Shown piece by piece: positions 1 to 34,123 of a stretch of DNA of 35,575 bases. Within the stretch, counting starts at the first letter, position 1. Each line of letters starts with the position of its first letter. The stretch comes from a virus (lineage: Duplodnaviria > Heunggongvirae > Uroviricota > Caudoviricetes), in the IMG/VR virus record IMGVR_UViG_2579779007_000007; one strand, given 5' to 3'. Both the position numbers and the translations under genes were made by a program. The notes beneath the pieces were generated by a model. It was given only the letters and a program-made list of their open reading frames with translations. It did not search any database and had not been told where the DNA came from.

Positions 1-21
1 ATGCGAGAGACAGTCGAAATT

Positions 22-351
22 ATGCGTTATCCCGTCACTCTTACACCCGCGCCGGAAGGCGGTTATATGGTTTCTTTTGTGGATATCCCTGAAGCGTTGA
101 CCCAGGGCGAAACTGTCGCTGAAGCGATGGAAGCGGCAAAAGATGCTTTACTGACCGCATTTGATTTTTATTTTGAAGATAACGAGCTTATCCCGTTACC
201 TTCGCCATTAAATAGTCATGATCACTTTATTGAAGTACCTTTGAGCGTCGCCTCTAAGGTATTGCTGTTAAATGCTTTTTTACAGTCAGAAATCACTCAG
301 CAAGAGTTAGCCAGGCGAATTGGCAACCCGAATGTAGTCAACCCAAAATAA
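22..351 (+). CDS. hicB: HicB-family antitoxin, N-terminal domain only; ORF ends after 8 unrelated codons, apparently disrupted by the AT-rich element
   Basis: Translation MRYPVTLTPAPEGGYMVSFVDIPEALTQGETVAEAMEAAKDALL... matches the enterobacterial HicB N-domain as recalled. Start of an Xre-like HTH (ITQQELARRIG) is cut off near nt 331. GC drops from about 50% to about 35% after nt 340. Confidence 0.6.
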   Translation: MRYPVTLTPAPEGGYMVSFVDIPEALTQGETVAEAMEAAKDALLTAFDFYFEDNELIPLPSPLNSHDHFIEVPLSVASKVLLLNAFLQSEITQQELARRIGNPNVVNPK

Positions 352-583
352 CTAAAAATTTTGCAATAAAAAGCCCCATCTCAAGGACAAGGCTTAGAAA
401 TCAACTAATTAACATAGTTTCCAGATCAAAGGGGTTATAATGAAATCCATAAAAGGTGATCTGTTAGCTGGGTGCTGTATATCTAAAATGTTACTTAATT
501 AATATCGTTCTGGTGGTTAGCTTTCATCGCATCCCACCATTTTTGAGTAATCTTCATGCTATTGAATTGCATCATTTCACCTC

Positions 584-1363
584 TTACTCTGCGTCTACCA
601 TGTCACATGCAAATTGAGTGTGTTTATATTCAGAATCAAATTTTGGTTCAATTACTTCAAGACGCATGTCACCTTTTTTGCTTACCCAGATGTTATAAGT
701 GTTAACACGTCCAATAGCATCCTGTTTGGATTTACCTTCCATTGCGTTTGGATTCTCTTTAGATGGCTTGAGACTTGATTTATAAACATCATACTTGTCG
801 GAATACACAAAAGATACAGGAACATCGTCTACCATTTTGATCTTAAGTTTACCGCCGTTATTATCAAAAGTTTTGTTTCCGTAGAGTTTATCTTTTACAG
901 CTTCTGTTTCCTCACCATCGATAACTTTCCATGTAAATTTTGTAGTACATGCGTAAATCGCGGTAACATTCAGTTTCTTTACTTCTTCCTGTTTCGGTTG
1001 TTCTTCTTCAATCTTCGCAGAAGTCTCTGAATCGCTCTCTGACGCGGTTTCTTCTTTAGATAATACATTCATCAAGTTTTGGATTTGAGCGTTGTATACA
1101 GCCTCCAGTGGCTGAATCTGCCCGATATTGATCATTGTATCACGAACAGTTTTATTCCAGTTGCGTTGCTCTTGTTTAAGAGACGGATCAATCTTAACAG
1201 CCTTAACATATACTTCATGAAGTTTAGAATCCAGTGCGGAGATTGACTCATTAGCACAAATAAACTTCTCTGATTTGGTTATAGCCTTAGTGCAATCAAA
1301 GGACGCAGCATCAGCACCGAAAGCAGTAGCAGAAAGCACGATAGCAGCGATAATGTTTTTCAT
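584..1363 (-). CDS. secreted protein with N-terminal DUF1311 (LprI-like, lysozyme-inhibitor family) domain and an unknown C-terminal domain
   Basis: 259 aa ORF with signal peptide MKNIIAAIVLSATAFGADAA. Motif C..A.T..E..IC...L..LD..L...Y followed by QR.W...RD is typical of DUF1311. RBS AGAGG upstream. Confidence 0.5.
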   Translation of the reverse strand: MKNIIAAIVLSATAFGADAASFDCTKAITKSEKFICANESISALDSKLHEVYVKAVKIDPSLKQEQRNWNKTVRDTMINIGQIQPLEAVYNAQIQNLMNVLSKEETASESDSETSAKIEEEQPKQEEVKKLNVTAIYACTTKFTWKVIDGEETEAVKDKLYGNKTFDNNGGKLKIKMVDDVPVSFVYSDKYDVYKSSLKPSKENPNAMEGKSKQDAIGRVNTYNIWVSKKGDMRLEVIEPKFDSEYKHTQFACDMVDAE

Positions 1364-1721
1364 TTTATACCTCTTTTGGTATGGACTGACTTTTAGATGC
1401 TTACTTTATTGATTTTTGATATTTTTTCAATTATTGGGATGAGATTTAGTAATTAAATTAAGAAATTAATGCTTGACAAATTAAAAAGGTACTGTTCCAC
1501 GGATGAAATAAAGGGAGTTTTCGGCACCCCGGTATTTGATACGCGTGTGAGATTTTAAAACGTGATCAGTGCAGTCCTAGCGCGGTTGCTACGCGACTAT
1601 TAACCCACTTCCTAGCCCTTACCATTACTGGATCTTTCCCTTCGTTAGAATGCGATTTAGGCGCTTAGATTGTGCGTAAAACCAATAAATAAAATTACGC
1701 AAATTTAATGGAGGATAACCA

Positions 1722-2276
1722 ATGAAAGAAGAATTAACCCTTACAGAAATTTCCCGTTTATACGGCTATTCATTGAATGGTGGCGCTAAGCGATGGATAG
1801 AAAGGGGATTGCCATTTAACACCAATACCCGCCGCGTGCCAGCCAAAGAAGGAACAGAATGGGTCTTGAAAAATATTATCAACCCGCTTAAACAAACTTC
1901 TATCAAAGAACAAATCGATGTAGAGAAATTACGCCGTGAACGTGCTTTGGCAGATGCAGCCGAACGAGAGAACCAGGAAAAAATGAATCTCCTGATTCCT
2001 GTCGGTTATGTAGAACAGGAACTAGCGGAATATTGCGGGAAAGTGAAGCAGACTATTTTGCAGATCGCCACAATTGACGTTTTGGAAGTTCTCGAATCTG
2101 CCACCGACCAGAAAACATTGAAGAACAAATTAAGGGAGATCATCGAGCGTCGTTTAAATGAAGTAGGGGACTTGTTCGAAAATGCTGATTTGGGAGAAGA
2201 CGAGGAAGAAGAATTACCATTAATGGATGAACCGGAAGAAGAACCAGAAGAAGACGATGAATTTGATGTGTCTTAA
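1722..2276 (+). CDS. lambda Nu1-like terminase small subunit (putative)
   Basis: 184 aa. N-terminal winged-HTH-like segment, central EKLRRE..AL.DA segment resembling lambda Nu1, acidic C-terminus. RBS GGAGG. Pairs by family with the gpA-type large terminase at 8493. Confidence 0.5.
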   Translation: MKEELTLTEISRLYGYSLNGGAKRWIERGLPFNTNTRRVPAKEGTEWVLKNIINPLKQTSIKEQIDVEKLRRERALADAAERENQEKMNLLIPVGYVEQELAEYCGKVKQTILQIATIDVLEVLESATDQKTLKNKLREIIERRLNEVGDLFENADLGEDEEEELPLMDEPEEEPEEDDEFDVS

Positions 2277-2327
2277 AATTTCTATACTAAATACATATGT
2301 GAAAGATGTTGAGCTGGTCAACGTCTA

Positions 2328-2363
2328 CGGGGGAGAACATCCCCCGCTTAACCTTTTTCTTAT
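2328..2363 (+). terminator. putative intrinsic terminator after the Nu1-like gene
   Basis: CGGGGG-agaacat-CCCCCG hairpin followed by a T-rich tract that begins 7 nt after the stem. Confidence 0.35.
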
Positions 2364-2377
2364 TTGAGGATTTACCT

Positions 2378-2479
2378 ATGGTTGAATTTTTGATTTATCT
2401 TACTGTAGGATTAACTATCGTATATTCACTGGCACATATTGGCATTTCTGCTGTGTGTAACGCTTTCAAGTATCATTAA
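2378..2479 (+). CDS. small hydrophobic peptide (33 aa, one predicted TM helix)
   Basis: Manual translation MVEFLIYLTVGLTIVYSLAHIGISAVCNAFKYH, with GAGGA about 8 nt upstream. Below the 60-aa ORF-track cutoff. Confidence 0.3.
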   Translation: MVEFLIYLTVGLTIVYSLAHIGISAVCNAFKYH

Positions 2480-2532
2480 TTAAATCGATGAATTGAACTA
2501 TAGATGATGGTCGTGTTCAAAGAGGATTATCT

Positions 2533-2706
2533 ATGGATCTTTTTGTCTACTTTGCTACTCTGCTGTTTTTGACTATCGTCGCTGGCATTAAATTGATTTT
2601 TATATCGCTGGTGGTGTTTTTCAAATTTCTAATCGGTACGCCTTACGGCTGGGTATGCTTCTTTTTGTTTATTCTTTTTAGTTGCTGTAAAAAGGATACT
2701 AAATAA
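2533..2706 (+). CDS. small membrane protein (57 aa, two predicted TM helices)
   Basis: Manual translation MDLFVYFATLLFLTIVAGIKLIFISLVVFFKFLIGTPYGWVCFFLFILFSCCKKDTK, with AGAGGA 7 nt upstream. Confidence 0.35.
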   Translation: MDLFVYFATLLFLTIVAGIKLIFISLVVFFKFLIGTPYGWVCFFLFILFSCCKKDTK

Positions 2707-2864
2707 TAGTGTAATCTGCCTTTTCTCCTTATGGTTATTAACAGGGGATCTTCTTTGAGGATTCCCGATTAAAAGCCATAAAACACACTCCAGTACAGTG
2801 TTTTCATAGTCAGTGATCTATACAACACAAAAACATAACAAGTATAGATTGAGTATTAATCCTC

Positions 2865-2890
2865 CCGCCCCTTCGGGGCGGTTATTTTTC
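2865..2890 (+). terminator. intrinsic terminator
   Basis: CCGCCCC-ttcg-GGGGCGG hairpin followed by TTATTTTT. Confidence 0.6.
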
Positions 2891-2966
2891 TGGCTTTAAA
2901 GAATAATGTAGCATTATGTTCATTATAACCTCATCTTTGTTGTGCAAACCTAACCTAAACTTACTA

Positions 2967-2992
2967 GGGACTCTTCGGAGTCCCTTTTTTTT
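2967..2992 (+). terminator. intrinsic terminator, possibly bidirectional
   Basis: GGGACTC-ttcg-GAGTCCC hairpin followed by eight T. It abuts the stop codon of the minus-strand gene 2991..3233. Confidence 0.6.
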
Positions 2993-3233
2993 ATGCAACA
3001 ATTCGAAGTGTAAGTTTCTTATGTTGTGTAGGTTTAGTTTCATTTCGCCACTCAGGGAATACATGATCCATCATAACCGCATTAGTCTCATCAATCAGCT
3101 TTAAGGACTTTCTCAACGCCTTATTATCAGCTTTAAGAGTTTTAATCTCTGATTCCATCGCTACCATTCTTTCTTTCATTTTGGTAATTTCTAACATCAG
3201 ATTACCCAGAAATTCTTTGTTTTGATTCATCAT
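2991..3233 (-). CDS. hypothetical coiled-coil protein (80 aa)
   Basis: ORF with RBS GAGGGGTGAA. Heptad-rich sequence. Lies 16 nt downstream of the 333-aa gene on the same strand. Confidence 0.45.
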   Translation of the reverse strand: MMNQNKEFLGNLMLEITKMKERMVAMESEIKTLKADNKALRKSLKLIDETNAVMMDHVFPEWRNETKPTQHKKLTLRIVA

Positions 3234-3248
3234 AGATTCACCCCTCTA

Positions 3249-4250
3249 TTAAGCTGCGTATGCGTAGGCGCTGTAGTTGGTGTCGTAGATAGCGTCATGC
3301 AGTGCCATCTGTGCTTCGCGGATCTCGTCTTCGTTTACTTCAATCTCTTCTTGTTCTTCTTCGGTATCTTCCCAAGTGGTTTTGAATTTAGCCATAAAGT
3401 TATTGCGCAGGGATTCAAAGTTAGTAACAGGTGCGGATTTTTCTTCAACCGGAACTACTACCGGATCAGCTTCTTTCTGTTCTTCCTGTTCTACTTTTTC
3501 ACCATTACCCCAGCGATAGTTAAGGAGTTCTTCCAGTTCTTCATCAATGGATTTTTCTTCAACTGCTTCAACTTCAACCGCTGCTACTTCGAAAGTGGTT
3601 TCCTGTGCTGCCAGTTCAGCTTTCAGAGATGCGTTTTCAGCTTCCAGTTCAGCAATGCGTGCTTTCAGTGCTTCAACTTCGGAAGATTCAACCACTGCAA
3701 CTTCTTCTTTAACTTCTTCAACTACTACCGGAGCAACTTCTTTCTGTGCTTCTTTTTTGCAGAAGAAGGAGGAAGTAACCTGTAATGCGTGGTTGTAGAA
3801 GGAACCGCCTTTAGCGGTGTTAACAGTACCAGAAACATCCTTTACAGTGGATTCGGTAGCAACAGTACGGAAGCGTTTTGCGACTTCCTGGGTCTCTACG
3901 CCGTATTCGTTACGCTTGCTCTTGTGATGCATTACAGCACGGAAGCCGGAAGCAGTTTTAACAACAGCCAGATAGTAAGTTTCATCGGCTTTAACAGCAC
4001 GAGCGAAGCAATAAACGGATTCACCTTCTACCAGTGTAGGTTTAACGTGACGTTTGTCGAAACGGTTAGTGATCTGCCATTCAGCACCGTCTTTGATGCC
4101 AGCATTCTGACGCATTTCGGTCAGAGTCTTACCGGATACTACTTCAAAGGATTTGTCTTGTTTGCTTGCTTTACCTTCCATGACGGTAATGTTCAGTTTG
4201 CCGTTGGATTTAATAAACAGGTTGAAGGTGATGCGCTTAGAATTTTTCAT
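3249..4250 (-). CDS. hypothetical protein: N-terminal globular domain, central coiled coil (EALKARIAELEAENASLKAEL), acidic C-terminal region
   Basis: 333 aa ORF with RBS GGAG. Coding-like composition. No family recognised. Confidence 0.6.
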   Translation of the reverse strand: MKNSKRITFNLFIKSNGKLNITVMEGKASKQDKSFEVVSGKTLTEMRQNAGIKDGAEWQITNRFDKRHVKPTLVEGESVYCFARAVKADETYYLAVVKTASGFRAVMHHKSKRNEYGVETQEVAKRFRTVATESTVKDVSGTVNTAKGGSFYNHALQVTSSFFCKKEAQKEVAPVVVEEVKEEVAVVESSEVEALKARIAELEAENASLKAELAAQETTFEVAAVEVEAVEEKSIDEELEELLNYRWGNGEKVEQEEQKEADPVVVPVEEKSAPVTNFESLRNNFMAKFKTTWEDTEEEQEEIEVNEDEIREAQMALHDAIYDTNYSAYAYAA

Positions 4251-4295
4251 TTATAAATACTCCTGAATGCTGTGTTAGTTTTAATTGTTCATATC

Positions 4296-4330
4296 AAAAG
4301 CCTCCTTGCGCCAACAGGGAGGCTTTTTTA
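4296..4330. terminator. bidirectional terminator-like hairpin between the 60-aa and 333-aa genes
   Basis: AAAA-GCCTCC-ttgcgccaacag-GGAGGC-TTTTTT: an A-run before and a T-run after the stem. Confidence 0.4.
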
Positions 4331-4367
4331 TTTTTAAAGCCATCATATAATTCTCAGTGAAAGGTTA

Positions 4368-4550
4368 TTACCAGACCTCGGCGGTAATCTTTACTTTAAT
4401 ATCATACTTCTTTAAGAGTTTGTGGAAGGTTGATTGATCAATACCTTCACCTTTAAACCATTCACCCATCACTACATCAGGTGTCAGTTCAAAATAACGC
4501 TTTGCCATTTCTAAAACGATTTCACGAGTGAACTTAACAGGTCGTGCCAT
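4368..4550 (-). CDS. small HTH DNA-binding protein (60 aa)
   Basis: Strong RBS AGGAGGA. Pattern FTREIVLEMAKRY...GIDQSTFHKLLKKY resembles IS/phage-type HTH. Confidence 0.5.
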   Translation of the reverse strand: MARPVKFTREIVLEMAKRYFELTPDVVMGEWFKGEGIDQSTFHKLLKKYDIKVKITAEVW

Positions 4551-4907
4551 CTTATATCCTCCTAAATCTGGAATAATGATTTCTTAAAAAAGAGCTTTTC
4601 GCTCTGAACAATTCTATTTATAAAATGTTTTTCGAAAAACCCTGTAAAACCACTGTATATCCGATCAGTGGGAGCACGAATTGCTAAAGAGAAGATTAAT
4701 AATTAATCAATTCGTACATTATTCAATCGAATAAGCACTGTATGTTTAGCCAGTTCTGTATGAATTAACAGTGAGTCAGGGGATTTTCAGAAGTGAACAA
4801 TCATTTCATGCATGTATTTATACACGAAAAAATCTTGCGTATCATCAATATGGGGATTGTTTCGAAAATTTCAACCCCTACCAACGAGAAAAAGCATAAA
4901 ATAATCC

Positions 4908-4921
4908 TTGACAGTTGTCAA
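4908..4921. promoter_or_regulatory. palindrome TTGACA-gt-TGTCAA (back-to-back -35-like hexamers or operator)
   Basis: Perfect 6-bp arms. A leftward -10 candidate TATGCT lies 17 bp away on the minus strand, positioned to drive the 4550-to-2991 cassette. Confidence 0.3.
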
Positions 4922-4946
4922 TACACTTGATCTAAGCGAGAAATGA

Positions 4947-4969
4947 CTATCAAAATTTTTGTGTGAAAA
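4947..4969. repeat. direct repeat copy 1: CTATCAAAATTTTTG-TGTGAAAA
   Basis: Near-identical 22-23 bp copy at 5096..5117. A DnaA-box-like TTATCAACC sits between them at 4983..4991. Confidence 0.5.
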
Positions 4970-5095
4970 TGGCGGATAACGATTATCAACCTTTATAACC
5001 TATTATAGCACGGCGACCTTTTGATAATTCTTTTTAAATCATGCATTTACGGCGGTTTTTGGTGATTTTCTGGTTAAATAATATACAAGAATTTT

Positions 5096-5117
5096 CTATC
5101 AAAATTTTTGATGAAAA
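5096..5117. repeat. direct repeat copy 2: CTATCAAAATTTTTG-ATGAAAA
   Basis: See copy 1. This copy directly abuts the iteron array. Confidence 0.5.
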
Positions 5118-5118
5118 A

Positions 5119-5239
5119 CCTACACTACAAACCTACGCTTTAAAGGGATTGGCCTACACTACACTAGCCAGTAAACCTACACTATAACACCCTCAAACCT
5201 ACACTATGAAACCTACACACCTACACTAACCCTACACTT
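5119..5239. repeat. iteron array: about 8 direct copies of CCTACAC(T/G)(A/T) in about 120 bp
   Basis: Copies start at 5119, 5132 (variant), 5153, 5176, 5198, 5212, 5220 and 5231. Several spacings are 21-23 bp. Preceded by an AT-rich tract, inside a 1.27-kb stretch with no ORF of 60 aa or more. Confidence 0.7.
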
Positions 5240-5584
5240 CAATCTCATAAGTGTATGATCTTGAAAGACATTTCACCCCACAGACCATAGAATATAAAAT
5301 TCGAACTAACGTTCTCCTTTTTGCTCGTTTTCTCTCACTACGTTCAAGAAAGATCTCGCAAAAAGAATACGGCGTAGCCGTGCGCGAAGCGCCCATCAAC
5401 ACCTTCTAAGACCTGCAAGCAGGATTCGAAAGGGATTGGATAGTTCGCTTCGCTCACGTTCACGCCTACGGCGTTCACTCGCTTTTGAAAGGATTTTCTT
5501 AGAAAGGGATTTAATACTAGTTACTAACTGATTCTAGTAAACGAACGAAGTGAGTAACAATCACTTTCTAGAAAGGTATTGGTT

Positions 5585-5613
5585 ATCCCTTCGGGATTGC
5601 AACCTTCGGTTGC
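5585..5613 (+). other. two tandem GC-stem hairpins with TTC(G) loops (candidate structured RNA element)
   Basis: ATCCC-ttc-GGGAT immediately followed by GCAACC-ttc-GGTTGC. No clean T-run follows. Confidence 0.35.
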
Positions 5614-5817
5614 TAAATTGCTTCCTGATTATTATTTCTCCAAAAGAAAGATTCTTATATTCTAAAGATACTTCTTCGTTTTGATGATGATTTAATCAAA
5701 CCATGAAGGAGGGCTTTAGCCCGACTGAATACAATCACCTTTCATAATAACAAGAATTTTCTCTTTATAAATAATAGTGAACTTACTTGATTCACTTTCT
5801 TTTAGAGGATTTCCACT

Positions 5818-6285
5818 ATGAACCATAAAATGACTACCACTACTCCTTTTATCCTTCTGGGTCTGGATTCTGATAGCTTCCACAATGACAAGTTAATGAA
5901 GATGTTCCGTGAACGTGGTTATAACATCCTTTTCAACTCTGATGAATCCCATTTCTCTAGTGCATGGTATGCGTTTTACCGTAATAAGAAGCCGACCATT
6001 GTAGTTAACTGCTTCACCGATGAAGAACGCTTAAAGTACCAGGATCTACCAGCAATTATTGTCCGTGATGATCTGCCGTTTCAAGTCCGTTCCGGTGACA
6101 TTGATCTGGGTAGCTTCGTTACTGTCTATGAACTGGATGAAGCAATGTTTAACTACGGCAAAGAAACCGCTCAGGAAGCCCCAGAAGAAGATGAACAAGA
6201 CGAAGATGACGACGACTACGCACCAATCTGTTTTTCTTCTCAGAATGGCTTCTACGGTTACGACGAAGGCTTAGATATGCTGTAA
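5818..6285 (+). CDS. hypothetical acidic protein (155 aa)
   Basis: RBS AGAGGA. N-terminal alpha/beta-like segment (PFILLGLDSDSF...), then a strongly acidic stretch EEDEQDEDDDDY. Confidence 0.55.
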   Translation: MNHKMTTTTPFILLGLDSDSFHNDKLMKMFRERGYNILFNSDESHFSSAWYAFYRNKKPTIVVNCFTDEERLKYQDLPAIIVRDDLPFQVRSGDIDLGSFVTVYELDEAMFNYGKETAQEAPEEDEQDEDDDDYAPICFSSQNGFYGYDEGLDML

Positions 6286-6320
6286 GTTAGGTCAACCCTT
6301 TGGCGTCTTGTCAAGGGGTA

Positions 6321-6349
6321 TTGACAAAAATTTCTGACTTTTTTATGAT
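6321..6349 (+). promoter_or_regulatory. sigma70-like promoter TTGACA-17 bp-TATGAT
   Basis: Consensus -35, 17-bp spacer, 5/6 match at -10. An inverted TTGTCAA lies just upstream (6309..6315). Positioned to drive the 6408 ORF and the Rha gene. Confidence 0.5.
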
Positions 6350-6407
6350 TGTCGCACTTGACAACTTTAAACCTATTTGACCTAGATTTGTAAATGGGAT
6401 GTTAATT

Positions 6408-6554
6408 ATGAACACTACTAAGAAAATTGATGGACGTAAAACCCCGAACCGCAAACCGTGGACCCCAAACCTGAATTTCTCAATGGTTGACTTCCATGAA
6501 CGCCAGCGTCGCATTCAAGAAGAAATTGATCGCGCGATTGCTGAATCTAAATGA
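6408..6554 (+). CDS. small basic protein (48 aa), hypothetical
   Basis: Manual translation MNTTKKIDGRKTPNRKPWTPNLNFSMVDFHERQRRIQEEIDRAIAESK. Its start region resembles the Rha start (ttaattatgaaYact...). Confidence 0.3.
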   Translation: MNTTKKIDGRKTPNRKPWTPNLNFSMVDFHERQRRIQEEIDRAIAESK

Positions 6555-6580
6555 GATAAAAACTTCTTATAAATAAAATT

Positions 6581-6602
6581 GTTCCGGTGATGCTGCCGGA
6601 AC
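6581..6602 (+). promoter_or_regulatory. perfect hairpin GTTCCGG-tgatgctg-CCGGAAC just upstream of the Rha RBS
   Basis: 7-bp perfect stem with no T-run after it, so possibly an attenuator, processing site or protein-binding palindrome. Confidence 0.3.
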
Positions 6603-6651
6603 TAGGAGGATCAATATCATTATCGCAAAACCGTTTAAGGGGAATTTAATT

Positions 6652-7458
6652 ATGAATACTGTTACTGCTATGAATACTACTAAAACCGCTTCCGTGTCTC
6701 TGGTTGTTGATAACACCAAACCGCTGACCATGTCTTCTCGTCAGATCGCTGAATTTACCGGAAAGAAACACTTTCACGTAAAACGCGACATTCGCGAAAT
6801 GCTGATTACCTTAGAATTAGATGAATCCAAATTTGGATGCATCTTTTTTGATCAATATGGACGCGAGCAAACAGAATATCACTTGAATGAAGAACTGACT
6901 CTGACTCTTGTCACTGGTTACAATATCCAGATGCGAAACGCGGTTATTCAGGAATGGAAGCGACTGAAAGAAGAAAATGAAAAACTTCGCTCTACTCCGG
7001 TTAACCCGTATGCAGACTTTGAAGAAACCGACTGGATCGAACTGGCGTTAAAGAAAACTCGCGAGAACAAGCAACTGATTACTCTACATCATCGCAAATC
7101 CGTAGATAGCCATTCAATGACGCGTTTGTTAGGTGCTAAAAAGGGCGCTACGAAGGTTAAAGAAGCACTGACGGCCTTACGTACTGCCGGATACATTGAG
7201 CGCGTCTATGATGAAAATAACAAGCCGTGTGGGTATGTTGCTAATGATTCCGCGATACCGTTTTGCAGCATGAACGCTCACTATCAACTTTCTTTCACTG
7301 TTGATGTGCTTCCGGTGCTGGTTGAATTGGGTGTTCTTGAAGAAGAACAAAAAGCAGCTTTGACACTGCCTAAACCGAATAACACGATCATGATTCAGAA
7401 TAAAGCGACTATCATGATTCGTCAGAATGTTGGATCGCTAGAACACTTCGGACTGTAA
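6652..7458 (+). CDS. rha: Rha-family phage regulatory protein (antirepressor-like)
   Basis: 268 aa. N-terminal SSRQIAEFTGKKHFHVKRDIREM matches the Rha-domain signature. RBS AAGGGG. Confidence 0.7.
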   Translation: MNTVTAMNTTKTASVSLVVDNTKPLTMSSRQIAEFTGKKHFHVKRDIREMLITLELDESKFGCIFFDQYGREQTEYHLNEELTLTLVTGYNIQMRNAVIQEWKRLKEENEKLRSTPVNPYADFEETDWIELALKKTRENKQLITLHHRKSVDSHSMTRLLGAKKGATKVKEALTALRTAGYIERVYDENNKPCGYVANDSAIPFCSMNAHYQLSFTVDVLPVLVELGVLEEEQKAALTLPKPNNTIMIQNKATIMIRQNVGSLEHFGL

Positions 7459-7466
7459 TAATTTTT

Positions 7467-7491
7467 GCCCCTGAATTTCAGGGGCTTTTTT
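7467..7491 (+). terminator. intrinsic terminator after rha
   Basis: GCCCCTGAA-(a)-TTCAGGGGC followed by TTTTTT. Confidence 0.7.
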
Positions 7492-7503
7492 GTATCTGTA
7501 GGT

Positions 7504-7532
7504 ATAAAAAAAGCCAACCCCGAAGGATTGGC
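7504..7532 (-). terminator. intrinsic terminator for the minus-strand 85-aa gene
   Basis: On the minus strand: GGCCAATCC-ttcg-GGGTTGGC followed by seven U. Convergent with the rha terminator. Confidence 0.5.
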
Positions 7533-7540
7533 CTAGAGAA

Positions 7541-7798
7541 TCAAATTCCTGTTGCTTCTACCATTTCACCATCAACCTGAACAAAGAATTTCAAATCAAC
7601 TTTATGAAGGGATTTGTATAGCTGGGCTATGGATAAGCCATGCTCATTTAATACCCGCTCTTTGTTCTCTTTACCTTTCGGTGCTTGATAGTACGCTTTT
7701 ACAATCGCTGCCAGTTGTTCACGATTAAAACGGGCAGGGCGACCGCGAGTAGCTTTAGTAGTCATAGTCATTTTCTCCAAATTAAAGTGAATGTTCAC
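7541..7798 (-). CDS. small DNA-binding protein (85 aa), HTH-like
   Basis: TRGRPARFNREQLAAIVKAYY...GLSIAQLYKSL pattern. Starts 2 nt after the stop of the upstream 201-aa gene. Confidence 0.5.
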   Translation of the reverse strand: MNIHFNLEKMTMTTKATRGRPARFNREQLAAIVKAYYQAPKGKENKERVLNEHGLSIAQLYKSLHKVDLKFFVQVDGEMVEATGI

Positions 7799-7800
7799 CT

Positions 7801-8406
7801 TTATTTAGAGGACTTACATTTTATCGGAAAAAGTTCTCCATCGTCAACCGACATAAAGAACTCTGCCTTAATCCCGTACTTCTTCAACCGTGAATAATAT
7901 GTACCCCGACTAATATCAACCTTGCGCAGCACTTCGAAGAACTCTTTAGGATTCCTGTAATAGTGGCTATATCGCACGTTAGCGAGTTCTACAAACAATT
8001 CCCTTGTATCACCATAGCCTTTCTTGAAAGCCACGTTACGATAGCGTGTAATGGCATGATTCAATCTCTTCTGTTTAAGCACTTCCCTGATCGGCTTCCA
8101 CTGCAACCGATAGATAGGACCGTCATCAATGCGATAATAACGCTTGATATCAAAATCAAACCAATCTCGGACTCTCCGAAACTCTGTATGTGATGTTCTA
8201 TGCTTCTTAAAGAAGTTGTGAACGTCTCTATAGCCATTATCACGGTAAAATTCTATTAAAATCTCTTTCGCTTCCTCACGGCTAAACCCAGATGTTGTGT
8301 AATCGGTCTTTAAGTGCTTATGTTTTACTGGCAAACGATATTCATGATCGGTACAACAAGACAAGGCTAATTCTACTTCATCTCTTTGTTGCTGATTAAT
8401 TAGCAT
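7801..8406 (-). CDS. hypothetical basic protein (201 aa) with C-terminal HTH-like segment
   Basis: Rich in R/K/Y. C-terminal ISRGTYYSRLKKYG is HTH-like. Divergent from the large terminase gene. Confidence 0.55.
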   Translation of the reverse strand: MLINQQQRDEVELALSCCTDHEYRLPVKHKHLKTDYTTSGFSREEAKEILIEFYRDNGYRDVHNFFKKHRTSHTEFRRVRDWFDFDIKRYYRIDDGPIYRLQWKPIREVLKQKRLNHAITRYRNVAFKKGYGDTRELFVELANVRYSHYYRNPKEFFEVLRKVDISRGTYYSRLKKYGIKAEFFMSVDDGELFPIKCKSSK

Positions 8407-8492
8407 ACACCCTCCTTAAATCTTAATACCGTATTTATCAAAATATCAACAATTTAATAAATACCTTCATATTTCGTAATGAGGGTAATTAC

Positions 8493-10400
8493 ATGAAACT
8501 GATTTCTAATAAGGCAAAATTAAAAAAGATTCTCAGAAATGCAGCCAAATATATTACGCCACCGCCTAAACTCCTTCCATCGGAATGGTGCGAAGCGAAT
8601 CTAACGCTAGTCGATGGTCCTCGTGCTGGGGATAAAGTTAAATTGCTGTCATTTCAGAAAGGCATGATTGATGCTCCTTTCCTTGAGAAGAAAAAGAAGT
8701 ACGTTTTTTGTACGAGTGCGCAGATCGGAAAGACGACCATCATGTCAGGGATCATGTTTAACCAGATGGCAAACGATCCGTGTAATATCATTATCGGGCA
8801 AAGTACCGCTAAAGAAGTGGCTATGTACTTGAATACTAAGATCCGTCCTTCTATTGAAGCATGTCCGGCATTACAGGAAGTGGTAACAGATAAGAATGAT
8901 CGTAATGCGGTAAACAACAATAACCAGATTCAGCTAAAAACAAACCATTTCCTTTACATGGTTTCTTTGACCAGTCCTTCAAGTTTGCGCGGGCGTACTG
9001 CCAAGTTAGGGATTGTAGACGAATGCGACGCAGCAACAATCACCGAAGAAGGTTGCCCGGTGGCACTAACTGCAAACCGTTTAACTACCTTTGGTGATGA
9101 AGCTCGATTGATTGTTTCTAGTACCCCGACCAATAAGCTGGGAATCATTAACCAGCAATGGTTATCAAGTGATATGCGTATGTTTTTTGTTCCGTGTCCT
9201 CATTGCGGGGAACACCAGGTGATCGAGTGGGAAAACGTTCAATTTGAATGGCGTAACATTGATGGTAAGAACTTACCCGATCCTGATACCGCTCGTTATA
9301 TTTGCCCCCACTGTAAGAACGCATGGACAGAAGGGGAACGAATCAGGGCAGTAGCGCAAGGCGAGTGGAGAGCAACCCGTGAAAGTGAAGTAGCAGGATT
9401 CTGGATCAGTCGTCTGTATTCACCTTTCAGCACGATCCGCGCTTGTGTGGTTGATTTTAGTCATGCGTGGCAATCCTTTGATTTACAATCCTTTTTTAAC
9501 ACCGTGTTAGGCAAGGTATACGACGATCAGGACACGGCAGTAGAAGCAAATGAACTGGAACAACTCAAAACAGATGTTTCTATCGAGAATATCCCTGATG
9601 ACGTGATTTTCTTGTGTGCGGGTACTGACCAGCAATTAGATCGCGCAGAAACTACGATCATGGGCGTGGCAAAGGATAAGATTTATATTCTGGATCACCG
9701 CAGCTTTTACGATCATAACTGTGAACGATATGAATCACCTGTATGGGATAGATTAATCAACTTCCATAAAACCAAATTTACTACTGTATCGGGTGATCGT
9801 GTTCCTATGCTCGCCAGCTTCCTTGATACATCGAACGGTCGATTCACTCAAGCTGGATACCGTATTTGCGGCAAGTGGAAGAACTTACACGCTATCAAAG
9901 GTAGTTCTGCTGGTAACGCTCCGATCATTCCGGTTAAACCTACCCGCACAGGTGGTCATGAATTGCTTATGCTGGGCGTTAACGTTGGGAAATCCGCTGT
10001 TCGTGAAATGCTGGTTAGAAACCTGAAAGATAATCCTCATATTGGCTTAGAAATATCAGAAACCATTCCTGATGATTATCTCGATCAGCTTTTGAGTGAA
10101 TCCATCAAGCGTACTACTACTGGCGTGCGTTGGGTGAAAAATCCAGGTAGTACCCGAAACGAGGCTCTCGACTGTCTGGTTTATAGCTATGCTGCTTCTC
10201 GCTACGTTCTTTCAAAAATGTCATGGGATAAACTCATTGCAATGAAAGACAGCTTAAACCGTGTTGTCGAAGAATCCGTAGAAGCTCCTAAATCGCAATC
10301 TGACGAGCAAATCGAAGAAAATAAGCCAATCACACGACCACAACGTAAAAACATCGCCAGACGCCCAAATAGAGGCCGTAGCTGGGTAACATCGTTCTAA
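8493..10400 (+). CDS. terL: terminase large subunit, lambda gpA family
   Basis: 635 aa. Recalled gpA-family blocks: [45 protein letters not shown]. Confidence 0.9.
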
Positions 10401-10472
10401 TAACTCGCCGTCCTTCGGGGCGGCTTACTCCTAAATATTGTTAATCCAATAACAATTAAATAAGGGGTAATT

Positions 10473-10967
10473 ATGAGTTTAGAACTAATTCCCTTAGTAA
10501 TTCGTAAAGGTGAAAAAATCACGCTGGCGAATGAAGAGGGTGTAACAATTCAGGTAGGAAATAGTAAAGGTATCATTTATCAGGTTGATGATACTCCGGC
10601 TAATCATGAGATTAAAACCTTAGATTTTGCCGAAGGTAAATATACCATCGTAACCACTTTGGAAGAAGAACTGGTATCAATGCAGGAATTAACTGTTTTA
10701 CCAGTATTCGCCAAACAATCCAAAAAAGAATATCTGCGGGAAACTATCGCCTTAATCGAGCAAGTTATTTTCGCCCGTTTATCTGGGGACGAAGCCGCAT
10801 TATCTCAAATGACAGTGAAAGGGAATACTTTCGCCTATGAGTCATTAGGTGTTCTCCAGCAATTAAAGACTGATTATGAACGTCAGTTATCAAAATTAAT
10901 TCAAGCCGAACGACGTAAACAGGGAATTAGCCCGATTAAAAATATTAAAGTACGTCTTACGCGATAA
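10473..10967 (+). CDS. hypothetical head-associated protein (164 aa)
   Basis: Sits between terminase and portal, with the AAGGGGTAAT-type RBS common to the late genes. Confidence 0.55.
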   Translation: MSLELIPLVIRKGEKITLANEEGVTIQVGNSKGIIYQVDDTPANHEIKTLDFAEGKYTIVTTLEEELVSMQELTVLPVFAKQSKKEYLRETIALIEQVIFARLSGDEAALSQMTVKGNTFAYESLGVLQQLKTDYERQLSKLIQAERRKQGISPIKNIKVRLTR

Positions 10968-10977
10968 GGGGTAAATC

Positions 10978-12489
10978 ATGTTTAATCTTTTTCGACGCAA
11001 AAAGGCGGTAGAAACTCCAGTTAAAACTAATCACCGCCAACAACAACCAAAAATTTTCATCGACAAACAAGTAGAAAAATTTCAGAAAGATTTGTCTAAG
11101 CGTTCTTTGGGCTTAGTCGGTGATCGAATTGATGGGCAGCTTCAACAAGATACTATCACCGGAACGTTCAATAAGGCTCTCAAATCGAACGGTAAGCGCC
11201 TTTATGATCAGGGTCGTACTCTGGCCTTAAACACTTCCGTAGGCAGTCGATACACGCAATACATCACCGATATGGTGGTAGGTACTGGCCTAGATCCGAA
11301 GCCGTCAATCGTTAAATCAAATGGCAAACTTGATAGCGCACTGAATAAGCAGATCGAGAATGCTTTCTGGAAGTGGGCGCAGAATGCTAAACGCTTCTCT
11401 CGTAACGGTCGCTTTAACTTCCGTGAATTGCTGGTAATGGCTGAACGTGAGCGCGTTATGGGTGGTGAGTGTTTCATCGTTTTAACTAAAGAAAACAATG
11501 AGTTAAATGTTTCTATCCTGTCTGCTGATAAGTGCGACTGGACTCTCAACCGTGAAGTGAGCAAAGAACGTGCGATATATCAAGGTGTGGAGTATGCCGT
11601 AGAAACGATGAAGCCCGTGGCATACTGGTTTCGTAAAGTCAACCTACTGACTCAGACCTACACTGGTGATAACTATCGCGTCGATGCTTCGCAAGTATGC
11701 CATTATTATCAACCGCTTACCGCCGAATCCCTGCGTGGTGTGACTGACTTCCTGCCAGTGATTAAGGATATCGCACATCAAGATGCATTCCGCGAAACTG
11801 CGATCATCCAGAAACGCATTGCAGCTAGCTCTATGGGCTTTATCGAACGTCCGAAAGATTCTGGTGACGATTTTGATACTGGTGAAGAGGATGAACAATA
11901 TCAAGCGCCGGAAGTAGTACAGGACTTTGCACCGGGTACTATTCAGGAATTGCCGGAAGGGGCAACGATTAAGTCAATTCAGAGCGCCCAAAGTGGCGAT
12001 GACTTTAACAGCTTCAATGATGCGATGTTTACTAGCGTATCAATGGGCTTAGGCGTGTTTAAACAGGGCTTAACTGGTGATACCAGCCAGATCAACTACA
12101 GCGCAGCCCGCTACGGCGAATTGCTTCAACGCACACGAGTTAAAGCACTGCAAAACAAATTAATTGAAACAGTGGTATTGCCAATTTTTGAAGCATATCT
12201 ACGCCATTATTCCGCGCGTGGTATTGTTCCGATTCGTATTACTGCAATTCCGCATATTATCGACAACACTACTATTATTCGTCCGCGTTTTGAATCCGTC
12301 GATCCTATTAAAGACGTAAACGCTGATATTGCTTTAATTGATAAAGGACTTAAATCACGTACTGCCGTTATATTAGAACGTGGTGATGATCCTGAAAAAG
12401 TATTCTCAGAGATTCAAGCCGAAAAGAGCGCACTAAATATTATCGTTGATGGTGAGGGTGAAGAAAAAAATTCCCCAGCCGATCCCTAA
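10978..12489 (+). CDS. portal protein (lambda gpB-like)
   Basis: 503 aa, position after terminase, C-terminal block resembling lambda-type portals. Confidence 0.8.
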   Translation: MFNLFRRKKAVETPVKTNHRQQQPKIFIDKQVEKFQKDLSKRSLGLVGDRIDGQLQQDTITGTFNKALKSNGKRLYDQGRTLALNTSVGSRYTQYITDMVVGTGLDPKPSIVKSNGKLDSALNKQIENAFWKWAQNAKRFSRNGRFNFRELLVMAERERVMGGECFIVLTKENNELNVSILSADKCDWTLNREVSKERAIYQGVEYAVETMKPVAYWFRKVNLLTQTYTGDNYRVDASQVCHYYQPLTAESLRGVTDFLPVIKDIAHQDAFRETAIIQKRIAASSMGFIERPKDSGDDFDTGEEDEQYQAPEVVQDFAPGTIQELPEGATIKSIQSAQSGDDFNSFNDAMFTSVSMGLGVFKQGLTGDTSQINYSAARYGELLQRTRVKALQNKLIETVVLPIFEAYLRHYSARGIVPIRITAIPHIIDNTTIIRPRFESVDPIKDVNADIALIDKGLKSRTAVILERGDDPEKVFSEIQAEKSALNIIVDGEGEEKNSPADP

Positions 12490-24347: not shown

Positions 24348-24352
24348 TTAAA

Positions 24353-24397
24353 AGCCCTCATAGTGATAAATAATCATAAAACTATGGGGGCTTTTTC
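24353..24397 (+). terminator. long-stem hairpin plus T-run between tape measure and tail-tip genes
   Basis: 11-bp stem AGCCCTCATAG...CTATGGGGGCT with an 18-nt loop, then TTTTT. Confidence 0.4.
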
Positions 24398-24398
24398 T

Positions 24399-24959
24399 AT
24401 GTTCAAATCCAAGAATATTAAAATCACAGATTTTACTCTTAAATCAAAACAACCTTTCTTCAAGGCGCAATCTATCTCCGGTAAGTTCCAGCGTCGCTTT
24501 ACTGGCATCCATTTTTACGAAGCAGAATTTACCGCGAATTACATGGCTCAGGATATTAACGAAGTAAAAGAATTTGTAGCACGTCACCTTTTTGGTCGTC
24601 CTTTTAGTGTGCCACTGTCTTACTTTTCAAAATATACAGGTGATGTACGCCAGATGGTAACGGCTGCTGCTGGTACTGCTCGCGGTGGGCGTAAGGTGAG
24701 AATCTCCAACTTCACCGGAACACTGAAAGCGGGAACTGTCATCCAGTTTGAGAACCACAAGAAAATCTACACGATCACCGAAGACGTGAAATCAGGTGGT
24801 GAAATGAAACTCTTCCCTAACTTGCGTCAGAACGTCCTGGCGGGTGAGGTGATCAAGTATCAGAACGTAGAAGGTGAATTTGTTCTCAAAACTGAAAATA
24901 TCGATTGGAAGATCGCCCAGATTGGCAAGATGAAATTCGAATTAGTGGAGAATGTATAA
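24399..24959 (+). CDS. minor/distal tail protein (gpM-like position)
   Basis: Start placed at the ATG after the hairpin (MFKSKNIKITDF...). The ORF-track start at 24363 lies inside the hairpin. Confidence 0.5.
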   Translation: MFKSKNIKITDFTLKSKQPFFKAQSISGKFQRRFTGIHFYEAEFTANYMAQDINEVKEFVARHLFGRPFSVPLSYFSKYTGDVRQMVTAAAGTARGGRKVRISNFTGTLKAGTVIQFENHKKIYTITEDVKSGGEMKLFPNLRQNVLAGEVIKYQNVEGEFVLKTENIDWKIAQIGKMKFELVENV

Positions 24960-31111: not shown

Positions 31112-31149
31112 TCCATAAATACCCTCATAGAATCTTATGGGGGTATAAC

Positions 31150-32394: not shown

Positions 32395-34074
32395 TTAAAT
32401 TCCAAATTCTTGTAATGGACCTGGTATTTCTTCTTCTGGTTTCCAGTTCTTATCTGTCAGCATGTCTAAACATGGATGCAGAACAAGCCCGTTACTCTCC
32501 AGAATCTGCCTATCATTGATAGTCTTCAAATCAACGAAGATCCGGCCTTTCCTCGGTCCTCTTGAATTTTCTATTACAACTCTCTGGGTCTTGCCATCGA
32601 TGTATTCCAGTACAAACAAGTTTTTGTACTTGTCAATCCTGCTACACCCGATCCGTTTTAGAGCTTGCTTAATCTTAAACCGGACCTTAATGCGATCCTC
32701 GTTGTAAACATCTTCTAAATCAAATTCTGCGAGCTTCTCCCAGCCTTGAGAGTCAACAGAATACATTTCCTCTTCTGCCATCTTAAGTTGATTGTAGAGT
32801 GTTTCACGCTCGCTATTGAGGGTAGTAATCTGATCGGCTAGCTCCTTCGTTGCTCCTGTCATAGCAGAAAGGGTAATCAGGTTATCAATCTTGCGTGATA
32901 TTTCATCAATCTGTACTTTCAAAGCCGGAACCGGATTAGCCTTATCTTCAGCAATCCAGATTTTATCAGCCAGCAATTGCAATACAGCTTTCTCTAATTG
33001 GTCGCCGCGAAAACTCCAGTTTGTATGCACACATTCAATACGACTAGAGCGCATTGCATCGCATGAATAACGATATTGGTTAGGCCGTCTGTTTGTTCCT
33101 TTCACCTTAACCATAGCGGAACCGCAATGTTCACATTTCAATAGACCAACACCACTAAGCAAGGGAATAGGTTTAGCTTCTTCTTTGTCTCCAAAGTTAC
33201 ATGCTCTAACACCAATGCTTTTCTTAAGGTGATAAAACTCAGCGTCATCTAGCACACGAGGATAATAATCCTTTAACTCATACTTAACGCCATCTACAGA
33301 GATTTCCTTGATACCAATCAAAGCGCGGGTATGGAACAACCTTTCAATCATTGCCCGTGACCAGTTTGAATGCCTCTTGTGACTTGCGGCTGGTGGTGGT
33401 GTGTATGTCGCGTTAAGGTGATCCAGTATCTCGGCGGTTGACCGTCCATTCCTGCGTAATTCCACAACTTCCTGAACAATAGGGAAGAAGACCGGATGAG
33501 GAAGCACATAACCAGATGTGGTATCAGTCCACCACATATTCTTTCCAATTTCCTCGATTGCAACAGCCGGATTTTGTGGATTTTCTTGATGAGCTTTAAT
33601 CTTAATCAGTGCGCTTGAGTTAGTACGATTGCGCTTAGTCTGGCTTTCCTCATTACCACGGATGAATAAAAGGATGGAGAACATCAGGTCCATCGGGTTA
33701 GCGGTAACAGTATCAAGCGAGTAGATCTTGTTATCCATGCCAGTAACAATGGTTATCCCCCTACGGATGATTGAAAGGAATAACTCCTGCGCACTGACAA
33801 TATCGGCACGGGATAAACGGTCCAAGTTTTCGATGAATAGCCAGCTACCAACAGGAACGGATCTACCTATTGCATCAAGGAAACGAGATAGCGCCCCTGT
33901 TTTGGAGTTAGCACCCTTAAACGCAGATACACCCAGATCCTGATAATCATTTACCAGTTCAAGGTCATACTTTACCGCAATCTCTCTAGCCATCCTGATT
34001 TGTCGTTCATAACTCGAACCATCATTCTGACGCATAGACGAGAAGCGAATATACGAATACAGTTTAGTTTTCAT
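32395..34074 (-). CDS. large serine recombinase (candidate integrase)
   Basis: About 560 aa. N-terminal resolvase-type motif YIRFSSMRQ, recombinase domain, zinc-ribbon cysteines (CEHCGSAM...YRYSC), C-terminal coiled coil. ATG start at 34074; the ORF track uses a TTG at 34089. Confidence 0.85.
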   Translation of the reverse strand: MKTKLYSYIRFSSMRQNDGSSYERQIRMAREIAVKYDLELVNDYQDLGVSAFKGANSKTGALSRFLDAIGRSVPVGSWLFIENLDRLSRADIVSAQELFLSIIRRGITIVTGMDNKIYSLDTVTANPMDLMFSILLFIRGNEESQTKRNRTNSSALIKIKAHQENPQNPAVAIEEIGKNMWWTDTTSGYVLPHPVFFPIVQEVVELRRNGRSTAEILDHLNATYTPPPAASHKRHSNWSRAMIERLFHTRALIGIKEISVDGVKYELKDYYPRVLDDAEFYHLKKSIGVRACNFGDKEEAKPIPLLSGVGLLKCEHCGSAMVKVKGTNRRPNQYRYSCDAMRSSRIECVHTNWSFRGDQLEKAVLQLLADKIWIAEDKANPVPALKVQIDEISRKIDNLITLSAMTGATKELADQITTLNSERETLYNQLKMAEEEMYSVDSQGWEKLAEFDLEDVYNEDRIKVRFKIKQALKRIGCSRIDKYKNLFVLEYIDGKTQRVVIENSRGPRKGRIFVDLKTINDRQILESNGLVLHPCLDMLTDKNWKPEEEIPGPLQEFGI

Positions 34075-34081
34075 ACCATTT

Positions 34082-34123
34082 CCAAACAAAAACGCCCCTA
34101 CCGCGTATTATAACGATAGGGGC
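34082..34123 (-). terminator. minus-strand terminator upstream of the recombinase
   Basis: On the minus strand: GCCCCTATCG-loop-CGGTAGGGGC followed by GUUUUUGUUUGG. The loop contains TATAAT. Confidence 0.4.

Follow-up and report, generated by a model that had tools for sequence, protein, structure and literature searches.

A conserved gene pair divergent from the large terminase gene of an enterobacterial prophage encodes putative DNA-binding regulators of no known family

We analyzed p201 and p74, two minus-strand genes lying back-to-back with the large terminase gene (terL) of a tailed phage (Caudoviricetes) represented by IMG/VR record IMGVR_UViG_2579779007_000007; the whole 35,575-nucleotide stretch is referred to hereafter as the window, and is essentially one 35-kb Escherichia coli prophage. 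The pair is a fixed, conserved core part of this prophage lineage, and encodes basic proteins built from a module of three helices and a β-hairpin that, judging from profile comparisons, recurs in a third protein of the same phage, p60. We suggest, tentatively and at somewhat less than an even chance, that p201 and p74 are lineage-specific DNA-binding regulators of the divergent region that would carry both their own promoter and that of the late genes.

An initial annotation of this DNA described a two-gene operon of DNA-binding type, with its own terminator and divergent from terL, and that description stands, extended by a promoter-like sequence belonging to the pair. Two co-oriented open reading frames are indeed present on the minus strand (one of 201 codons, the other spanning 7541–7798, 85 codons when read from a GTG); the neighboring gene is a large terminase by its gpA-type profile matches (GpA_ATPase, 1.9e-55, and GpA_nuclease, 2.7e-44, in Pfam; phrog_15, 8e-133); the gap to the terL ATG is exactly 86 bp; and the pair does have a minus-strand terminator, which faces the plus-strand terminator of the Rha gene (7467–7485). 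The smaller gene is almost certainly 74 codons long, the 85-codon reading frame being an over-extension: its homologues have 74–75 residues and all of them, together with the RefSeq call WP_024233626, begin MTTK, with GGAG located 9 nt 5′ of the ATG at 7765 and no Shine–Dalgarno sequence at the GTG at 7798. Because this start lies 35 nt after p201, the two cistrons are not stop/start coupled, and the translational coupling proposed at first gives way to an arrangement in which p74 has a ribosome-binding site of its own; p201 is preceded by a strong Shine–Dalgarno sequence (AAGGAGG, 8417–8411), and the two are probably co-transcribed. Both are real genes under purifying selection, since third codon positions are the least conserved across 39 related sequences (identity at positions 1/2/3 of 0.88/0.90/0.75 for p201 and 0.85/0.90/0.68 for p74).

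The larger product had been described as a basic protein with a C-terminal helix-turn-helix (HTH); basic it is (isoelectric points, pI, of 9.6 and 9.75 for p201 and p74), but the fold element is present twice rather than at the C-terminus only. An N-terminal stretch of ~35 residues is followed by module A (~36–104), a basic linker (105–130, pI 11.6), and module B (~131–196). The AlphaFold2 (AF2) model of p201 (mean confidence score, pLDDT, of 71) has two repeats of three helices plus hairpin, at residues 43–100 and 135–194, with the disordered linker between them and, ahead of them, an N-terminal segment modeled at low confidence. The model of p74 (pLDDT 75) has a single module (helices 15–27, 32–41, and 46–55, strands 61–64 and 67–70) after a disordered arm containing RGRP, such that the order helix–helix–helix–strand–strand is predicted three times across the two proteins. 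The third helix of p74, SIAQ(L/F)YKSLHK, is nearly invariant among homologues, and p74 alleles fall into two classes (~90% and ~66%).

Profile–profile comparison indicates that all copies of this ~60-residue module (two in p201, one each in p74 and p60) are homologous. With hhalign, module A matches module B at E 6e-6, and p74 matches modules A and B at 1.7e-6 and 1.8e-6, respectively; the p60 family matches p74 with 96.6% probability (E 5.8e-10), module A at 2.7e-8, and module B at 2e-7. A hidden Markov model (HMM) of the module retrieves exactly p201, p74, and p60, both in the window and in each related locus that is complete, and had no match in ~110 unrelated viral contigs fetched for another reason. 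p60 is the first gene of a leftward operon adjoining an iteron region, and its alleles also form two classes (~55% and 80–100% identity). The 36 homologues of p201 are all annotated as "hypothetical".

The absence of a family assignment in the initial annotation was borne out by both profile and structure searches. No family in Pfam, PHROGs, NCBIfam, or PADLOC matches p201, p74, or p60; the best Pfam match of p74 is HTH_Tnp_1 (E 0.08–0.12, 13.1–13.6 bits against a gathering cutoff of 24.1), with HTH_7 (E 0.15 in 1/11 members) and WH_Rok also below threshold. Searches of 50,697 phage records by megablast and tblastn matched neither the region nor p201, p74, or the small terminase candidate (terS), and the p201 profile, run exhaustively as an HMM over 1.8 billion cluster representatives, returned only its own cluster and fragments; a pooled-module profile found no remote relatives, and three profiles run against PDB sequences gave only chance matches, for example to designed repeat proteins. 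Foldseek comparison of both AF2 models with the PDB, and of p201 with BFVD, returned nothing at E < 0.4 (best values 0.64 and 0.47, respectively), the weak top matches of p74 (E ≥ 0.64) being HigA, SSV1 F-93, and the DNA-binding domains of LysR and ArsR. Comparison with the DNA-binding domain of Hin yielded the expected register (the RGRP arm; GLSIAQLYK against GIGVSTLYR) but not a significant match (hhalign probability 2.6%, P 0.018). "HTH-like" is therefore used here as a statement about predicted topology and not about family membership. By these searches the module appears to be previously undescribed, with no relatives found beyond this prophage lineage; p201, p74, and p60 make up a new, narrowly distributed family of a familiar general kind, that of small basic HTH-like phage proteins.

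The pair keeps its place in every relative compared. The order terL, spacer, p201, p74, Rha-type gene, then p60 and, further on, terS is identical in 34/34 IMG/VR contigs, in E. coli prophages at another attachment site (in which p201 is just 51% identical), in Proteus columbae, and in two Salmonella lineages; the terL–p201 spacer ranges from 70 to 103 bp among these relatives, and the pair always diverges from terL. Across 5,426 complete E. coli genomes, the p74–p201–spacer block occurs in 54 and the terL–portal block in 55; the two blocks are contiguous wherever comparable among the matches listed, and records on one list only are incomplete matches. This comparison of presence and absence, which the initial annotation had proposed as a check for a mobile insertion, thus revealed no polymorphism in any of these sets (IMG/VR, E. 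coli, Salmonella, Proteus).

Conservation of p201 stands out from a mosaic early region. The window prophage sits in hicB (window 1–351 is the 5′ part of that gene, with the 3′ part beyond the prophage), and within this hicB group p201 holds at 87–96% identity, whereas the neighboring early genes vary widely (Rha 35–90%, p155 57–99%, p60 54–100%) or, as for p333, are replaced outright. The steadiness of p201 amid swapped early genes points to a function tied to the conserved late module rather than to an immunity determinant. For terL itself there are two alleles (~92% and ~58% amino acid identity to that of the window), around which the spacer, p201, and a downstream 164-residue gene are >90% identical; this pattern indicates recombination breakpoints exactly at the borders of the terL gene. 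Upstream of the nearest terL from a cultured phage (DCP80, 43% identity), no comparable genes are present. DCP80 (PQ671644.1, an Escherichia phage; positions 1–9611) is a 141-kb Straboviridae record that opens with a gpA-type terL–portal–capsid block, unexpected for a T4-like phage, and may be a chimeric assembly.

The 86-bp spacer is the most conserved stretch of the neighborhood. Its core is 0.917 identical among the 39 relatives, compared with third-codon-position values of 0.75 (p201), 0.68 (p74), and 0.57 (terL), and it remains nearly unchanged beside the 51%-identical p201. Within it, two ATAAATAC boxes stand back-to-back as an inverted repeat, with TATCAA repeats between them. The boxes are separated by 18 bp in the window and by a single base pair in two relatives (L032 and L036); Proteus has 26 bp between them, and one Salmonella lineage has 34 bp. 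Such arm spacings exclude the GTATTTAT/ATAAATAC inverted repeat as a single dimer operator, and the boxes are best described as separate units, each of which is conserved along with the leader downstream of it. A consensus-like site for integration host factor (IHF) between the boxes was set aside, the pattern not being enriched in the window (7 copies against 3.2 expected).

On the terL side, the leader folds into a hairpin (ΔG −10.4 kcal/mol, z −3.7, 0/200 shuffles as stable). A second element of this type precedes the lysis cassette, where ATAAATACCCTCATA, 27 nt ahead of the first gene, is accompanied by a hairpin (31119–31146) of −15.3 kcal/mol (z −4.3); both hairpins pair the Shine–Dalgarno sequence with CCYTCAT. 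The lysis-cassette element is kept in L048, L050, L054, L098, L103, and L121, even where the upstream gene has been replaced. Among relatives, the stem of L028 changes from CCTT to CTCT with pairing retained, and the Proteus stem is weaker.

The 8-mer GTATTTAT is by itself weakly enriched (5 copies against 2.1 expected). The pattern ATAAATACNNNCAT, which was set post hoc after two copies had been seen, has three exact copies against 0.05 expected, upstream of terL, the lysis cassette, and p60. Relatives carry a box upstream of p155 as well, a position at which the window instead has TTTATAAATAAT (at 5764), and a variant form, (A/C)TAAATA(A/C), lies 29 nt ahead of terS. Judged by sequence, the box could act as a −10-like element (TATAAA with discriminator), could be bound by a protein, or could do both.

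Two further sequence features touch these elements. A hairpin with a U-run at 24350–24400, after an 810-residue gene (ΔG −21 kcal/mol, z −5.3), has a stem (CCCTCATAG/CTATGGGGG) related to that of the lysis leader hairpin and contains ATAAATAA in its loop; it may terminate or attenuate transcription within the tail operon. The sequence TATCAAAA is over-represented (11 copies against 3.3 expected, 0/100 shuffles), occurring at 862, 1414, 4292, 4948, 5019, 5097, 8148, 8436, and elsewhere; six copies fall in regulatory stretches that are non-coding, among them the terL/p201 spacer and the two flanks of the iterons.

These observations can be rationalized as follows. p201 and p74 would be transcribed leftward from a promoter back-to-back with that of the terL (head–tail) operon, inside the 86-bp region, and would bind AT-rich sites there, the ATAAATAC boxes and intervening TATCAA repeats being candidates; binding would set the level of the two proteins themselves and act as a gate on late-operon transcription. 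The lysis cassette is probably part of the same regulon, because it has this box too, together with a leader hairpin of similar form. Since the two boxes of this phage stand just 18 bp from each other, RNA polymerase would be unable to hold both promoters simultaneously. We infer all of DNA binding, the binding sites, and the choice between activation and repression; the predicted folds are consistent with binding in that each module has three helices and a hairpin, the proteins are basic, p74 carries the RGRP arm, and its third helix is nearly invariant. Of the roles suggested in the initial annotation, late-gene regulation is the best remaining one, for which position and conservation speak.

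Several points weigh against this interpretation. We infer DNA binding by p201 and p74 solely from predicted topology and charge, and neither protein has a homology match or a significant fold match to a characterized regulator. The variable spacing of the boxes (1, 18, 26, or 34 bp) does not describe a single fixed dimer operator; the boxes may simply be −10-like elements read by the host σ70, or could be recognized by another protein (Rha, p60) or by none. Alleles of p74 and p201 assort independently of each other and of those of terL, so that co-variation supports no specific partner. A bolder form of the proposal, which we hold to be decidedly unlikely, is that p201, p74, and p60 constitute a self-contained private transcription system that reads (N)ATAAATAC boxes and drives or gates every operon of the phage, with p201 as an adaptor or σ-like specificity factor for late promoters and the spacer boxes as a mutually exclusive switch.

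The wider prophage bears on the alternatives (Table 1). Its segment 6600–10500 is 100% identical to E. coli strains H2 and CE0007a, in which the identical sequence extends over 6600–12489, and the prophage is carried by ~1% of complete E. coli genomes (54–57/5,426). From the left, the gene order runs through an LprI-like gene (minus strand), the Nu1-like terS candidate (plus strand), the leftward operon p60–p333–p80, a 1.27-kb region poor in open reading frames that holds the iterons, and the rightward operon p155–p51–Rha; p74/p201 follow on the minus strand, then terL, the head–tail joining protein, portal, protease–capsid fusion, tail genes, and lysis genes. The terS candidate, conserved among relatives, lies 6.2 kb upstream of terL, with regulatory and early genes on both strands between them; every relative keeps this separation, an unusual one among lambda-type terminases. 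The prophage yielded no recognizable repressor, replication protein, or directionality factor, Rfam had no match in the window, and literature searches on the hicB prophage and on the RefSeq protein accessions found nothing relevant.

Table 1. Positions in the window of the p201–p74 operon, its control region, and other features discussed.
Feature	Position	Strand	Remarks
p201	7801..8406	-	201-residue basic protein
p74	7541..7765	-	74-residue basic protein
Intrinsic terminator of p201–p74 operon	7511..7534	-	10-bp stem, then T run
Divergent control region	8407..8492		86 bp between p201 and terL
Box ATAAATAC	8438-8431	-	in control region
Box ATAAATAC	8457-8464	+	in control region
Promoter-like TTGATA-18-TAAGAT, σ70-like	8449-8420	-	from promoter scan
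IHF-consensus-like TATCAACAATTTA	8444-8456		in control region
terL leader hairpin UACCUUCAU / AUGAGGGUA	8462..8487	+	sequesters terL Shine–Dalgarno sequence
terL	8493..10400	+	gpA-type large terminase; first gene of head–tail operon
p60	4368..4550	-	paralogue with same module; RefSeq WP_000113735; 60 residues
Box upstream of p60	4821-4808	-	
terS candidate, Nu1-like	1722..2276	+	phrog_57 "terminase small subunit", E 1.5e-11, nearly full length
Box variant ATAAATAA	1685-1692		ahead of terS candidate
Second terL-type element, ATAAATACCCTCATA plus Shine–Dalgarno-sequestering hairpin	31115..31149	+	directly upstream of lysis cassette
Large serine recombinase	32395-34089		right end of prophage; phrog_95, 2.9e-58

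Could the pair serve DNA packaging rather than transcription? p201 and p74 might bind DNA near cos or the terminase and help TerL and the distant TerS to assemble, in the manner of the winged-helix Nu1 N-domain or of IHF at cosB. Their invariable position immediately beside terL would suit such a role, as would the unusual distance between terS and terL, the winged-helix-like look of the AF2 modules, and the sharing of one box by the p201, terL, and lysis promoters, through which the pair may be co-expressed with the late genes. The packaging role, also raised in the initial annotation, is nevertheless weakened by the full-length, Nu1-like terS-family protein that all relatives conserve separately. 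p201 and p74 lie on the strand opposite the packaging genes, and their alleles co-vary neither with those of terL (92% vs 58%) nor with those of terS; the spacer is AT-rich, whereas by analogy with lambda cos would be expected at a G+C-rich segment upstream of terS. Overall we find an accessory packaging function unlikely. That p201 or p74 is itself the small terminase is unlikely: neither matches a PHROG or Pfam small terminase family at E ≤ 1, both are encoded on the opposite strand, and the other candidate is conserved.

A role in some other DNA transaction directs attention to the iterons. The array (5119–5237) lies inside a gap poor in open reading frames (4551–5817) and contains seven exact copies of CCTACAC in one orientation plus one variant, at ~11/22-bp spacing (11 copies in the window against 1.9 expected, 0/100 shuffles); a second repeat, AGAAAGGGATTGG, has ~4 copies (5142, 5429, 5499, and 5572). 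The array may serve as an origin, as a centromere, or as a set of operators. Four iteron types are found among relatives, namely CCTACAC, TTGCCCCTGAA, TCCCCG, and ATCCCTAG (13 copies in Proteus).

p201 and p74 might control replication or partition at these repeats, or else provide directionality or excision control for the serine integrase. p60 does head the operon adjoining the array, the tandem winged-helix-like modules of p201 recall iteron-binding Rep proteins, and this serine integrase prophage has no identified directionality factor. Yet the iteron type follows whichever gene fills the p333 slot (downstream of p60), p333 itself (3249–4250) occurring in CCTACAC-type phages only, while p201 is the same in CCTACAC- and TTGCCCCTGAA-type phages; iteron types occur with the same p201 alleles, one of which (P0036) is identical in L037 and L038. 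It is because of this co-variation that the p333-slot protein, p333 belonging to no known family, is the likely iteron binder, and that p201 is unlikely to be an iteron-binding Rep. Foldseek returned no match to RepE, π, or RepA, and p201/p74 show no linkage to int; known directionality factors of serine integrases, moreover, bind the integrase rather than DNA. We consider a role of this kind rather unlikely.

Distinctly improbable, in our estimation, is a moron-like module expressed in the lysogen and independent of the lytic program, whether as a repressor or exclusion function, a toxin–antitoxin pair, or a defense pair. The pair does form a self-contained unit with its own promoter and terminator, set on the opposite strand between two lytic operons, and p74 has the weak Foldseek likeness to HigA antitoxins (E 0.64). 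Morons, immunity, and defense cassettes are, however, highly polymorphic, whereas this pair is never absent or replaced in relatives and no other gene of the early-side region is as well conserved as p201; PADLOC, Pfam, and NCBIfam gave no match to a defense or toxin–antitoxin family, and the p201 promoter overlaps that of terL.

The remaining proposal, a mobile-element remnant (a homing endonuclease or an insertion sequence, IS-like, OrfA) inserted upstream of terL, drew on the sub-threshold HTH_Tnp_1 match of p74 and on a combination of RGRP arm and HTH also present in Hin and IS3 OrfA, and is scarcely credible: the fixed position of the pair in ~90 related prophages of three genera contradicts it and synteny effectively refutes it, Pfam finds no transposase or nuclease domain and there are no flanking inverted repeats at the pair, both genes are under purifying selection, and their paralogues are integrated in the regulatory region of the phage itself.

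The finding is a modest one, of an orphan regulator-like pair and not of a new kind of system. It corrects the annotation of the locus, in that the small gene has 74 codons rather than 85, that the family comprises three paralogous genes, and that no mobile element is involved. Should the regulatory interpretation be true, a widespread and unstudied group of enterobacterial prophages (in E. coli, Salmonella, and Proteus) would control its late genes in an unusual way, relying on small DNA-binding modules of a family private to it and on a divergent promoter region that is very compact and highly conserved; the pair would also offer a way into a lineage in which the genes for repressor, replication, and late control all lack annotation.

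Comparison with known systems shows likenesses of the module to several DNA-binding folds without assigning it to any. As in the HTH domains of Hin/resolvase and IS3 OrfA (HTH_7, HTH_Tnp_1), a basic arm (RGRP in p74, ARP in p60) precedes three short helices, and the p74/p60 motif G-[IL]-S-I-A-Q-L-Y-K is in register with GIGVSTLYR of Hin; unlike these domains, the p74-type module has an additional C-terminal β-hairpin and no attached recombinase or transposase. RepE, π, and RepA consist of tandem winged helices, and p201 similarly has two modules of helices plus hairpin in a phage with an iteron array, but there is no fold match and a Rep winged-helix domain is roughly twice as large as a p201 module. 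Lambda Nu1 is likewise a winged-helix-like DNA-binding protein (p201 and p74 being winged-helix-like in predicted topology) encoded beside a gpA-type terL; in contrast to Nu1, p201 and p74 are encoded on the opposite strand and match no PHROG or Pfam small terminase family, and a Nu1-like phrog_57 protein is encoded 6 kb away.

For the regulatory interpretation, the relevant comparison is with Mu C/Mor, P1 Lpa, and P2 Ogr. p201 and p74 have no sequence or fold similarity to these proteins and, unlike them, are encoded divergently from the presumed target promoter; they are likewise small, phage-encoded, putatively DNA-binding proteins at a late promoter. Mu C/Mor, P1 Lpa, and P2 Ogr act at late promoters that have a −10-like box and no good −35 element, and the (N)ATAAATAC box, with no obvious −35, resembles the T4 late promoter consensus, TATAAATA; we regard both likenesses as no more than leads.

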